A DNA stretch of 64,000 nt from a virus (IMGVR_UViG_3300003375_000001:96001-160000), one strand, 5' to 3'. Positions 35,921 to 39,147 are shown, counted from the stretch's first letter. Notes: generated from the sequence alone by a model not told the origin. Numbers and translations: made by a program.

Positions 35921-36636
35921 CTACAAAAACCTTTACCATAGTAGCACCTCACGTCGATGACGAGGTAATAGGATGCTATAGCCTTCTTGACGCTGGTCTA
36001 GTGTCTGAAGTAATATACCTGTATGAAGTAGACGAGGTGCGAAAGTCTGAGGCTCTTGCTTGCGCTAAGAGGTTCGGGTTTAAAGCTACCATAGCTGGCG
36101 TTGACTACCCCGAGTCGGAGTTACAGGCCTACTTAAGAAAAGACGTAGCGCGTAGTATAGTTTTGCCTTCAGCTTATGACAGCCATCCTGACCATAAGAA
36201 GGCGAATGCAAAGTTTAGGCCTATTGACGACTTTTCCTATACGTCTTACTACGGGGTGGACATGAGCACTCCTAATACTACGGTACTATCGGTTGAGACT
36301 CGTGACAAAAAGAGACATGACCTTTACACCCTCTTCCCCTCACAGGCCTCGTTGTTTAATAGCAGTGATAAGTATCATCTGTTCGAAGACATGAGGAACC
36401 ACGACTGCACTTTCTATAGAAATTATGGGTGGACTAATAGAAATAACACTAAGATCGTCCTGAGTAGCTTTGGTGAAAGGGGCTTCCCTCCTAGTCTCGA
36501 ATGGTGCTTCCATGCTATTGATAACGTTGGTGCTCACAACATAGAGCTAATAGCTGATCGTATCCGCTCCCTGTACCCTAAGCTAGGGGTTAAGGTGACT
36601 GTTAACGAGTCTCACTCTGTTAGTATACCTATCTAG
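35917..36636 (+). CDS. PIG-L/LmbE family de-N-acetylase
   Basis: VAPHVDDEVIG and HPDH motifs; ATG 35917 overlaps the upstream stop. Confidence 0.8.
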   Translation: MTTKTFTIVAPHVDDEVIGCYSLLDAGLVSEVIYLYEVDEVRKSEALACAKRFGFKATIAGVDYPESELQAYLRKDVARSIVLPSAYDSHPDHKKANAKFRPIDDFSYTSYYGVDMSTPNTTVLSVETRDKKRHDLYTLFPSQASLFNSSDKYHLFEDMRNHDCTFYRNYGWTNRNNTKIVLSSFGERGFPPSLEWCFHAIDNVGAHNIELIADRIRSLYPKLGVKVTVNESHSVSIPI

Positions 36637-36644
36637 GACACGTA

Positions 36645-36842
36645 ATGACTTTGAGCCAACAGCCCTCTGCGGAAGAATTACTGTCAATACTCTACCACTC
36701 GCTGCCAGACATTCTCCCTGCCGTTGTAGTAGACAGATTCAATAGAACAGGTGTCTGGGCTGAAGGCAGCCATTACGCTAAAAGAGGTTTTACCTCAAAG
36801 GTAGTATACCGACTTGACGATGATATTCACATAGTCCTGTAA
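36645..36842 (+). CDS. hypothetical protein
   Basis: AGGA RBS. Confidence 0.5.
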   Translation: MTLSQQPSAEELLSILYHSLPDILPAVVVDRFNRTGVWAEGSHYAKRGFTSKVVYRLDDDIHIVL

Positions 36843-36897
36843 GTCATGGATAGCGCAAACAAACTCTTCACACAGGCTAAGCCTAAGGAAACTCACC

Positions 36898-36975
36898 ATG
36901 AACCTAGTTAAACAGCCACTCCCCTTGTACCTTGTACCCTTGGAGCCTATAGCGTCTAAAATCTTGTACCGTTAG
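36898..36975 (+). pseudogene. stranded 5' end of the glycosyltransferase gene (MNLVKQPLPLYLVPLEPIAS-KILYR*)
   Basis: Strong RBS AAGGAAACTCACC-ATG; LYLVPLEPIAS matches LFLVTLEPIAS at the start of 37987-39147. Confidence 0.75.
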
Positions 36976-38040
36976 AACCTCTCATTTTTATTCAGGATAA
37001 ACTACACCTGACGAAAATGCCTAAAATCATATGGACTGACGAAAAGATTAAAACTGAATTTTACAGTGCTTGGAAAAATGCGTGTGTAATACTAAATAAG
37101 GGCACTAAGGGCAAGGCTTCCCGCTTAAAAATTAAGTGTACGCATCATGGTATATTTGAAAGCACTGTAACCAACGCTATTCGTAAAGGCTGCCCTCACT
37201 GCGCGGGCCTTACCAACTATTTATGGTCTGATGAAAGAAAACAAAAGGCCAGCCATAGACAAAAAGGTGAGCCTAAGCGTAAGGGGAGAAATAACCCCTT
37301 AACTCTTACTTTAGAAGAAGTTAAAAACAAGATAGTTAGTCTGCATGGTAATAGATACGACTTGTCTTTCATAAAAGACCCTTTCCCGCCTAATAACAAA
37401 TTTACCTTAGTATGTTCTACTCACGGTAAATTTGTCAAACATCGCACAGACATCCTGTATAACGCTAAAACAGGCTGTCCAAAATGTAAAGGTGGGAAGC
37501 TGTTAACGTCTATAGAGGTTAAGAAAAGGTTGAAGGCTACGCAGCCTAAATGGATAAGTTATTCAAAGCTAGAGTACAGTAGAGAAGGCTTTACCATAAC
37601 ATGCAAGCTCCACGGCGATAGCATAGTAAAGCCAAGTAGAATCTATTCTAAAGGCTACGTTTGCAAGCAGTGTAACGTTAAGAGAGTTAGAGACTTAAAG
37701 GTTGCAAGTGGTTTATACCTTGACCCGAAACTAAAATCAGCCTTTGCCGTATACAGGCAAGAAGTTAGAAGACTTTCCGATAAAACGTTTAAACTTCACT
37801 TCGATAAGGACACCCGGACTAAAGACGTTCACTTAGACCACGTATATTCTATAAGATCGGGATTTGACAATGAAGTCCCACCTGAGGTTATAGCTAGTTT
37901 ACCTAACCTTAGACTTCTGTCCAGAACAGATAACCAGAGTAAACGAGATAAGTGTGACATTTCACTAAAAACCTTGTATAAGTTATATGCAAAGACCAAA
38001 AACTAAACTTTTTCTAGTTACTCTTGAACCTATAGCGTCT
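36958..38040 (+). mobile_element. free-standing HNH homing endonuclease insertion carrying a replacement 5' end for its target gene
   Basis: Bounded by a 12-nt direct repeat CCTATAGCGTCT (36946-36957 and 38029-38040); visibly more A-rich than its flanks. Confidence 0.7.
37017..38006 (+). CDS. HNH homing endonuclease with three Zn-finger repeats
   Basis: C..HG.F...GCP.C-type repeats x3; HLDHVYS...NLRLLSRTDNQSK HNH core. Confidence 0.85.
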   Translation: MPKIIWTDEKIKTEFYSAWKNACVILNKGTKGKASRLKIKCTHHGIFESTVTNAIRKGCPHCAGLTNYLWSDERKQKASHRQKGEPKRKGRNNPLTLTLEEVKNKIVSLHGNRYDLSFIKDPFPPNNKFTLVCSTHGKFVKHRTDILYNAKTGCPKCKGGKLLTSIEVKKRLKATQPKWISYSKLEYSREGFTITCKLHGDSIVKPSRIYSKGYVCKQCNVKRVRDLKVASGLYLDPKLKSAFAVYRQEVRRLSDKTFKLHFDKDTRTKDVHLDHVYSIRSGFDNEVPPEVIASLPNLRLLSRTDNQSKRDKCDISLKTLYKLYAKTKN

Positions 38041-39147
38041 CGGTATACAGGTTCTTGGTACAAAAACTTTCCCCCAGCCTTTGAAGAGCTGGGGTTTGCC
38101 GTTACTGTGCTTGACGGTACGCCACTCACAGATACCATAAAAGTTGGTAGCTTTCTTGATATCAATTCCACGATAGCTTATAAGAACTCCCAAATGGGGA
38201 AGATAGCTGGCATGTTTCATAGAAAGGAAGTGCCTCAAGGCGCTCACTTCTATTTCATGGACATAGAATTCTGGGGAATTGAGTCGTTGCGCTTGATGGC
38301 TGACATGAACAACGTCAAGATTCATATATCCGGGTTCCTGCATGCGGCTTCTTACACAGTAGACGATGCGTTTTCTATTGCAGCTCCTTACCAGAGGTAT
38401 ACAGAGGTTGGCTGGATAGCGGCATTGGACTTGGTATTCGTTGGCTCGGAGTACCACAAGAGAGCACTAATAGACCGGCGTCTTACTCTACCAGGTCTAA
38501 GCGACTTGTCCAAGAAGGTAATCGTAACCGGCAACCCCTTGTTTCAATCTGATTATCCTGTTTATGGCTTGCCAAAGAAGAACCAGATAATACTGCCTAA
38601 TCGTATTGACTGGGGTAAGAGGCCTGACCTTAGTTTTGCTGTGGCTGCGTTGTTCAAGGCACAGAGACCTGATTGGAATGTAGTAGTAACAACAGGTAAA
38701 GAAACGTTGTCCAGTGATAAGCAATGGCTTAGTGACTATGCCTACTGGATGCAGAAGCTAGGAGTTCTTGAGATAAAAACCAACTGTACTAAGGAAGACT
38801 ACCATAAGACCTTAGCCGAAAGCAAGCTTATGATGTCATTCTCTATAGAGGAAAACTTCGGGTACTGTATAGCAGAAGCCATTATCTATAACGTACTGCC
38901 AATCCTTAGGTCAGGCTTGTCCCATGACGAATTTAGCCTTCCAGATGCCTGCTATTTTGATGACGAAGACGGAGCGTTAAAAACATTGTTGGCCCTTACG
39001 GATCTTAATAACTATAAGTATAAGCATAGAGTGACCATAGAGGATACCGTTAATACACTAAAGCACGGTAGCTGTAAGTATTTAGGCTACCCCGGTAACA
39101 ATACGTCTATACGGGAAATGGCTATTGAAATGAAGGCTCTGATATGA
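37987..39147 (+). CDS. GT-B fold glycosyltransferase-like protein
   Basis: LEPIASRYT..W, FLHAASY, NRIDWGKRP, EENFGYCIAEA (ExFG..E nucleotide-sugar motif). Confidence 0.75.
   Translation: MQRPKTKLFLVTLEPIASRYTGSWYKNFPPAFEELGFAVTVLDGTPLTDTIKVGSFLDINSTIAYKNSQMGKIAGMFHRKEVPQGAHFYFMDIEFWGIESLRLMADMNNVKIHISGFLHAASYTVDDAFSIAAPYQRYTEVGWIAALDLVFVGSEYHKRALIDRRLTLPGLSDLSKKVIVTGNPLFQSDYPVYGLPKKNQIILPNRIDWGKRPDLSFAVAALFKAQRPDWNVVVTTGKETLSSDKQWLSDYAYWMQKLGVLEIKTNCTKEDYHKTLAESKLMMSFSIEENFGYCIAEAIIYNVLPILRSGLSHDEFSLPDACYFDDEDGALKTLLALTDLNNYKYKHRVTIEDTVNTLKHGSCKYLGYPGNNTSIREMAIEMKALI

Follow-up and report, generated by a model that had tools for sequence, protein, structure and literature searches.

How can an endonuclease gene sit inside the coding region of another gene, in neither an intron nor an intein, while the interrupted gene still specifies one complete protein? 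The question is raised by a glycosyltransferase (GT) gene in a 64,000-nucleotide (nt) stretch of viral DNA, hereafter called the window, which corresponds to bases 96001–160000 of a virus record in IMG/VR (IMGVR_UViG_3300003375_000001; 238.5 kb, bounded by direct terminal repeats). In the window, the beginning of the GT gene is present more than once, and a gene for a putative HNH endonuclease lies between the first and last of these copies. Base composition and comparison with homologues show that a cassette bearing the endonuclease gene is foreign to this genome, and that it interrupts the resident GT gene after codon 17–20. The GT is made whole by the cassette's own, diverged gene start, and the resident start survives only as a stub. 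We consider it probable that a free-standing HNH homing cassette of ∼1.08 kb, carrying the first ∼18 codons of a GT allele on its 3′ end, moved into place by one-sided homing.

Organization of the interrupted gene

The features that define the locus are given below. Window positions on the plus strand are used throughout, unless genome coordinates (G000:C1) are given.

36885–36889, plus strand: Shine–Dalgarno (SD) sequence AAGGA, which belonged to the original GT start and is now used by the stub (5-nt match, 8 nt ahead of the ATG)
36898–36975, plus strand: orphan stub of 25 codons; the first 20 are the resident GT N-terminus, followed by five junk codons and TAG
36931–36957, plus strand: copy A of the gene start, the target segment (LVPLEPIAS codons); resident, with mainly G/C-ending codons and a near-invariant Pro retained
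36946–36957 and 38029–38040, plus strand: the 12-mer CCTATAGCGTCT, identical at both positions, 1083 nt apart, ending copies A and C
36958–38028, plus strand: inserted cassette, a compositional island whose right limit may lie anywhere in 38029–38040 owing to the shared 12-mer
36963–36980, plus strand: copy B, 18 nt encoding LVPLEP in the frame of the HNH ORF, just after the TAA at 36957–36959 and inside the low-GC insert
37017–38006, plus strand: free-standing HNH endonuclease open reading frame (ORF), 329 amino acids, with three zinc-ribbon (DUF723-type) modules and a C-terminal HNH domain
37987–39147, plus strand: intact GT-B glycosyltransferase, 386 amino acids, with a cassette-supplied N-terminus; an uninterrupted ORF with all 46 family-invariant residues
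38005–38040, plus strand: copy C, the live replacement of codons ∼7–18, KLFLVTLEPIAS, with A/T-ending codons and Thr in place of the near-invariant Pro

A preliminary description of this locus had listed a minigene, an HNH ORF, a GT restart, the 12-mer and a third copy of the gene start, all of which were found at the positions it gave. The minigene, here called the stub, reads ...LYLVPLEPIAS, continues with KILYR and then stops. The N-terminus of the GT reads MQRPKTK-LFLVTLEPIAS-RYTG, and its start overlaps the 3′ end of the HNH ORF by 20 nt in a different frame. The GT ORF is continuous from 37987 to 39147 with no translational bypass gap, and the piece upstream is a mere 25-codon stub rather than a second functional polypeptide. 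The insert measures 1083 nt (3 × 361), of which the HNH ORF occupies 990 nt, or 91%. Only 59 + 34 nt (93 nt) of insert sequence lie outside this ORF.

An ORF inside a gene could signify a self-splicing intron, of group I or another type, whose removal would connect the stub with the GT body, in which case the true protein would start with MNLVKQ. The 5′ exon would indeed end in U (36957), the spacing of 1083 nt between copies A and C is a multiple of three, and the stub has kept a good SD sequence. However, a permissive cmscan of 36500–38400 against all Rfam detected no intron family at E ≤10, and the 93 nt outside the ORF leave little sequence for one. Moreover, the two boundary rules, a 5′ exon ending in U and an intron ending in G, are satisfied together in no register of the 12-mer, and the final nucleotide of the intron would be T. 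Splicing of the stub to the GT would also make a second complete N-terminus, equipped with its own ATG, superfluous. The HNH ORF frame differs from the GT frame and has stops on both sides, which argues against embedding in either an intron or an intein. On this evidence, splicing is an extremely improbable explanation for the locus.

Three copies of the gene start

The copies were examined with a profile hidden Markov model (HMM) of the N-terminal part that precedes RYT, built from 120 GT homologues and run on the six-frame translation of 36600–38100. Exactly three sites are matched, namely copy A (8.9 bits), copy C (7.7 bits) and copy B (2.3 bits), and the next score is −2.6 bits. When the same profile was used to search 29 loci of relatives (26 distinct contigs, ∼7–9 kb each), every locus yielded a single positive match, and the best second match was ≤0.8 bits. 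With three matches here and one per relative locus, the triplication is real and peculiar to this genome. Short direct repeats of 12–18 nt are frequent in the region, where they form nine families, so nucleotide repeats alone prove little. The weight is therefore carried by in-frame homology and not by the 12-mer alone.

Copy B is identical to the corresponding part of copy A (36931–36948) at 15 of 18 nt, and all three differences are at synonymous third positions. Copies C and A share 20 of 27 nt (74%), with synonymous changes in five of the seven codons that differ; to the left of the shared 12-mer they differ at 7 of 15 nt. Because the differences are mainly synonymous, the copies appear to be fragments of once-functional alleles rather than decaying local duplicates. 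Within copy A there is a tandem TTGTACC repeat (36926–36939), and the same heptamer begins copy B (36964–36970).

This small tandem repeat, and the tandem placement of copies A and B only 32 nt apart, are what might be expected if the GT 5′ end had been duplicated locally by replication slippage and an unrelated endonuclease gene had landed later between the copies. Such a history is contradicted by copy C, which is compositionally part of the insert (see below), by the concentration of differences at synonymous sites, and by the overlap of the endonuclease ORF with the live GT start. We give slippage only the slightest chance of being correct.

Both full copies appear able to serve as the beginning of a GT. 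When the stub is fused in silico to the sequence from 38041 onward, the family HMM gives 521.1 bits, compared with 520.1 bits for the real GT and 503.0 bits for the GT without its N-terminus. The near-equality of the first two scores marks both starts as competent family N-termini. They differ at one telling residue. The Pro of copy A is present in 115 of the 121 GT homologues compared (the listed family members), the others having Cys (five) or His (one). The Thr of copy C (GT residue 12, 38020–38022) occurs in none of them. In the live N-terminus, this Thr could be slightly detrimental to the first β-strand and loop of the GT, or be a sign of their foreign origin.

Base composition distinguishes the resident start from the imported one

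No other 990-nt window of the 238.5-kb genome is as poor in GC as the HNH ORF, whose GC fraction of 0.390 compares with 0.471 ± 0.019 and is >4 standard deviations below the mean. Measured in 90-nt windows, GC drops to 0.34 at ∼36955 and has returned to 0.52 by ∼38035, matching both junctions. The low-GC character extends into the live gene: the first 30 GT codons have a GC fraction of 0.23 at third positions, and the codons of copy C are A/T-ending like those of the insert. The codons of copy A are mostly G/C-ending, as in the rest of the genome. In addition, the copy A start owns a good SD sequence, whereas neither the HNH start nor the GT start shows an SD-like match, a lack shared by about half of the crude ORF starts in the genome (matches of ≥4 nt). 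By virtue of GC and codon composition, the SD sequence and the near-invariant Pro, copy A is recognized as the genome's original start and copy C as a sequence that arrived with the insert.

The second-lowest-GC kilobase of the genome (∼0.40) lies elsewhere, at G000:C1:13400–14200, and holds no ORF of ≥70 amino acids except for one dubious frame of 70.

The glycosyltransferase family and its endonuclease-free relatives

The GT belongs to a family of 314 proteins at E ≤1e-20. The Pfam model Glycos_transf_1 (PF00534) scores 24.6 bits on the GT itself, against a cut-off of 26.4, and PF00534 is the precomputed assignment for the GT and most of its homologues. The family profile also matches the GT1-family chains 5i45 and 2x6q at E ∼1e-3. 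In all 121 homologues, the motif that is split here is unbroken and consists of four hydrophobic residues, P(I/L)EP(L/I)x(E/S) and RYT. The preliminary description had anticipated this, predicting that endonuclease-free homologues would have the two parts contiguous, and hhhhP(I/L)EP(L/I)x(E/S) is indeed joined to RYT in them (h, hydrophobic). The cassette interrupts the most conserved stretch of the GT 5′ end, where its insertion point is flanked by the two nucleotide blocks that are conserved best. Homing sites are usually found in conserved sequence.

An endonuclease gene or a duplicated start is present at the GT locus in none of the 26 distinct related contigs, and no HNH homologue was found anywhere in the records of five large relatives. 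The nearest GT homologues are P0005 and P0006, with 63% and 56% identity, respectively. Scans of viral contigs returned no relative above ∼56% identity, and metagenome contigs none above ∼51%. The leaders of the closest relatives are variable, with an MxxPxLFLV pattern that is slightly nearer to copy C than to copy A; set against the alternative starts MQRPKTK and MNLVKQ, they decide for neither.

The GT gene stands in a 7-deazaguanine cluster in Xanthomonas phages X1 and BUDD, in Burkholderia phage BCSR5 and in numerous uncultured viruses. The gene order in relatives is a PIG-L-like deacetylase, a protein of ∼140 amino acids, the GT and DpdA, making this GT family a conserved companion of DpdA. 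In the present genome, no counterpart of the 140-amino-acid gene could be detected, and genes for a PNKP-type HAD phosphatase, QueE and FolE come after the GT. A 65-amino-acid ORF upstream (36645–36842) was considered as a remnant of the gene that precedes the GT in relatives, and proved not to be one.

The inserted endonuclease

The 329-amino-acid protein contains three Cys4 zinc-ribbon units (DUF723, E 1.3e-7), which would be DNA-binding modules separate from the nuclease domain, and the PHROG families that it matches are annotated as endonuclease and HNH endonuclease. The zinc-ribbon modules are widespread, with 7316 library proteins at E ≤1e-3, and are joined to other nuclease domains in P0126–P0128. 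A modular design of zinc ribbons plus nuclease is typical of homing endonucleases. The residues of the presumed active site are located as follows.

37830–37943, plus strand: HNH catalytic core (H272, D274, H275, N297, N306, K309), assigned from conservation in 27 homologues and a structural match

These six residues are invariant or nearly so across the 27 homologues. An AlphaFold model made on the homologue alignment has a mean predicted local distance difference test score of 86, rising to >90 over the C-terminal domain. In an all-against-representatives search with VIA-align, residues 241–310 are matched best by the Gme HNH nicking endonuclease (4h9d; Z 5.3, root-mean-square deviation 3.1 Å, 62 residues), and Cas9 HNH domains, GVE2 HNH, T5 SciA and I-HmuI are found at lower ranks. 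Foldseek with the whole three-domain model gave no match in the PDB at E ≤1e-3, and phmmer against PDB sequences gave chance matches only. Given its intact ORF, the invariant H/D-H...N...N residues and a fold model whose top structural match is an HNH nickase, the endonuclease looks active.

The closest HNH homologue is P0124 (42%). A tblastn search with the HNH protein against 50,697 phage records (E ≤1e-8) found matches only in Vibrio and Klebsiella phages, through distant zinc-ribbon sequences, and none in T4-like phages. Single-protein scans for the loci of HNH relatives brought no useful match.

Two other HNH-related loci were seen on the minus strand of this genome. A second free-standing endonuclease gene, of the HNH_3 type, encodes 196 amino acids at G000:C1:214339–214929 (E 3.4e-13), and an HNH_3 domain (26.4 bits) lies at G000:C1:225949–226029 inside an open frame of 1053 amino acids. 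The latter may represent an endonuclease that is fused to a large protein or carried in it by an intein. Within the HNH ORF of the cassette, at 37280–37301 on the plus strand, a terminator-like hairpin followed by a T-rich tail was recognized by consensus match only; the region has four such sites, compared with 1.3 ± 1.2 in shuffles. The promoter and terminator consensus scan of the region was uninformative.

Probable origin by one-sided homing

The most likely history for this arrangement begins with a carrier genome in which the HNH gene lay immediately upstream of the GT gene and overlapped its start. The enzyme would cut an endonuclease-free GT allele near the PxEPxxx/RYT codons. The right-hand end of the break would then invade the homologous GT gene of the donor phage and be copied leftwards through the gene start and the endonuclease gene, with the right-hand crossover in the zone of the 12-mer at 38029–38040. 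The left side of the cassette is almost devoid of homology, so an illegitimate junction would be formed there, beside retained resident sequence; the TTGTACC heptamer may have served as microhomology at this junction. Copy B would be a stub remnant carried at the left edge of the cassette, and probably stems from an earlier host allele. If copy B is such a stub, the locus preserves traces of three GT alleles, through which the cassette passed in two or more successive moves.

The preliminary description had proposed that an intron-less HNH element sits in the 5′ end of the GT gene, that the original start was stranded and that the insert supplies a replacement, and this proposal is supported by composition, by the homologues and by the lack of an intron model. 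Its further suggestion, that the element may have cycled more than once, gains support from copy B, which lies inside the low-GC insert and differs from copy A at three synonymous sites.

A different emphasis is placed by an adaptive version of these events, also put forward earlier. Here, the endonuclease gene was inserted de novo at codon 20, and a replacement N-terminus was selected, recoded to avoid self-cutting, and kept because the GT is indispensable. The divergence of copy C from copy A to the left of the 12-mer, which is mostly synonymous, is compatible with such recoding, and so is the GT's retention of every family-invariant residue. There is also a precedent in the MobA element, whose replacement region, which includes the site of nicking, has diverged as well (bioRxiv 10.1101/2022.08.31.505936). 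However, 12 identical nt and all of the right half of the presumed site are retained at the live junction, so the sequence gives no clear sign of immunity. An allele of another phage would be just as likely to show synonymous divergence and A/T-ending codons. Retention of the GT does not compel selection either, since homologous repair on the GT side brings in the donor's gene start automatically. The integrity of the GT is compatible with selection but is no proof of it, given how recent the insert looks. We therefore consider the adaptive version unlikely.

Several points weigh against one-sided homing as laid out above. If copy C is wholly donor-derived, the exact 12-mer that it shares with copy A is unexpected, and would require a crossover just to its left, chance conservation or later patch conversion. 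Copy B amounts to 18 nt and 2.3 bits only. No relative above 63% protein identity is present in the searched collections and neither an empty allele nor a donor was seen, so the order of events is reconstructed from one sequence. The Pfam HNH models do not match the 329-amino-acid protein, and its HNH assignment depends on motif conservation plus a fold match with a modest Z of 5.3. Endonuclease activity, the target and translation of the GT are likewise read from sequence.

The source record, moreover, is a metagenome assembly, and the arrangement was found in no second genome. Both facts would suit an assembly chimera, in which reads of endonuclease-free and endonuclease-bearing strains were misjoined such that the stub came to lie beside the cassette. 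Yet the sole exact repeat is 12 nt, which is too short to mislead a k-mer assembler, and the junction between copies A and B has no repeat at all. A misjoining would also leave copy B, within the insert, unexplained. We judge a chimera to be very unlikely.

Expression of the cassette and the glycosyltransferase

Translation of the GT probably relies on the HNH cistron, through coupling or read-through. Its ATG is about 17–20 nt ahead of the HNH stop, close enough to make coupling of termination and reinitiation feasible. RNA folding around the GT start is no more pronounced than in shuffles (z −0.55). A predicted structure is found at the HNH start.

36983–37019, plus strand: hairpin predicted by RNA folding, pairing the HNH AUG (37017–37019) with CAU (36983–36985)

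The segment 36955–37040 has a folding energy of −12.7 kcal/mol (z −2.0), a stability matched by 8 of 200 shuffles. A ribosome that ends translation of the stub at 36975 would extend to the base of the hairpin and could unmask the HNH AUG. This model weakly suggests, as speculation, that translation of the stranded start unmasks the start of the endonuclease. A −1 frameshift linking the stub to the HNH frame, which is open right after the TAA at 36957–36959, was considered and rejected: there is no slippery heptamer, and homologues begin at the same Met.

These elements could be combined in a bolder model, which we regard as doubtful. The cassette would be a self-perpetuating "gene-start replacer" whose every move is one-sided, since long homology is confined to its right side, and whose stubs (A and B) are a fossil series of its hosts. 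With each move it would strand the start of the next host gene and take part of the preceding stub with it. It would also make use of the host's stranded ribosome-binding site, in that ribosomes on the stub would melt the hairpin that hides the endonuclease AUG, and the endonuclease and the coupled GT would be expressed only where the host gene was translated.

Relation to known systems

Among published phage elements, replacement of the target by a sequence that the element encodes is essentially limited to the case of MobA and gene 60, and replacement of a gene terminus is known from fungal mitochondria, where it affects 3′ ends. Bonocora et al., in 2011, reportedly described mobA together with an N-terminal extension of gene 60, a homologous replacement region and a bypass cassette. 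The MobA element of T4-like phages carries an HNH gene, measures 1097–1106 nt and encodes a homologous replacement region that is 67%–81% identical to the target segment, and the new start of the downstream ORF overlaps the HNH ORF out of frame by 8–32 nt (bioRxiv 10.1101/2022.08.31.505936). The cassette examined here is similar in all of these respects, with 1083 nt, 74% identity over 27 nt, a 20-nt overlap, and an HNH gene within a coding region with no intron or intein. Presence of the element also varies among related genomes in both cases. The two systems differ in that MobA lies in mid-gene and yields two functional polypeptides, whereas the upstream piece here is a 25-codon stub. MobA deletes 55–75 nt of parental sequence, whereas here the parental segment is kept as a duplicate, and MobA needs a bypass cassette, whereas no bypass gap exists here. 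The target is a topoisomerase there and a GT here, and the present endonuclease is of a lineage with DUF723 zinc ribbons.

The orphaned start has a parallel in the "gene hybrids" of fungal mitochondria, which are represented by atp6 of Allomyces macrogynus and by atp6, atp9, cox2 and nad3 of Glomus (PMC3630166). Inserted and native ends in these hybrids have 64%–81% DNA identity and encode nearly identical protein (PMC3630166). In both settings, an endonuclease ORF brings a foreign gene terminus and leaves the native terminus alongside; in mitochondria the latter is orphaned and unexpressed. However, gene hybrids replace the C-terminus, involve LAGLIDADG or GIY-YIG endonucleases and occur in an organelle, in contrast to the 5′ end, HNH endonuclease, phage and mere ∼18 codons here. 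The cassette is thus best called an analogue of the gene hybrids and not a member, as its orientation and its setting outside an organelle set it apart.

For the mechanism, T4 offers a precedent in one-sided homing with microhomology-joined junctions, as described in the review PMC2988022, which cites Parker, Belisle and Belfort (1999). The free-standing endonucleases of T4 resemble the present one in the co-conversion of flanking gene sequence and in microhomology junctions when one flank is homologous. The seg and mob genes of T4 are usually intergenic, and a stranded start with a replacement is not described for them in the literature covered. In Aeromonas phage Aeh1, mobE splits nrdA (Friedrich et al. 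2007, cited in PMC2988022). An HNH gene there, too, lies within a conserved enzyme gene whose function is kept without splicing. The Aeh1 case differs in that both nrdA halves are needed and reassemble, whereas one complete polypeptide is restored here. The literature searches, whose coverage was incomplete, yielded no phage example in which a gene start is stranded and replaced.

Biological implications

The cassette points to a way for an endonuclease gene to occupy a coding region without an intron, an intein or splitting of the gene, which is to overwrite the beginning of the gene with a copy of its own. A phage version that acts at the 5′ end and has left starts from apparently three alleles would be a compact natural record of serial homing. 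It may also be seen as a natural counterpart of gene drives that pair a nuclease with a recoded rescue. Engineered home-and-rescue drives are synthetic, Cas9-based and eukaryotic, and the immunity of their rescue copy is designed. The analogy lies in the linkage of a nuclease to a recoded rescue copy of the targeted gene segment, with immunity being putative in the phage.

Two cautions for annotation follow. A short "leader" ORF that precedes an endonuclease gene may be the stranded start of another gene, and the N-terminus of the protein encoded downstream may be foreign. For this virus, the consequence is that in a cluster for DNA modification with 7-deazaguanine and sugar, expression of the GT now probably depends on read-through from a selfish gene.

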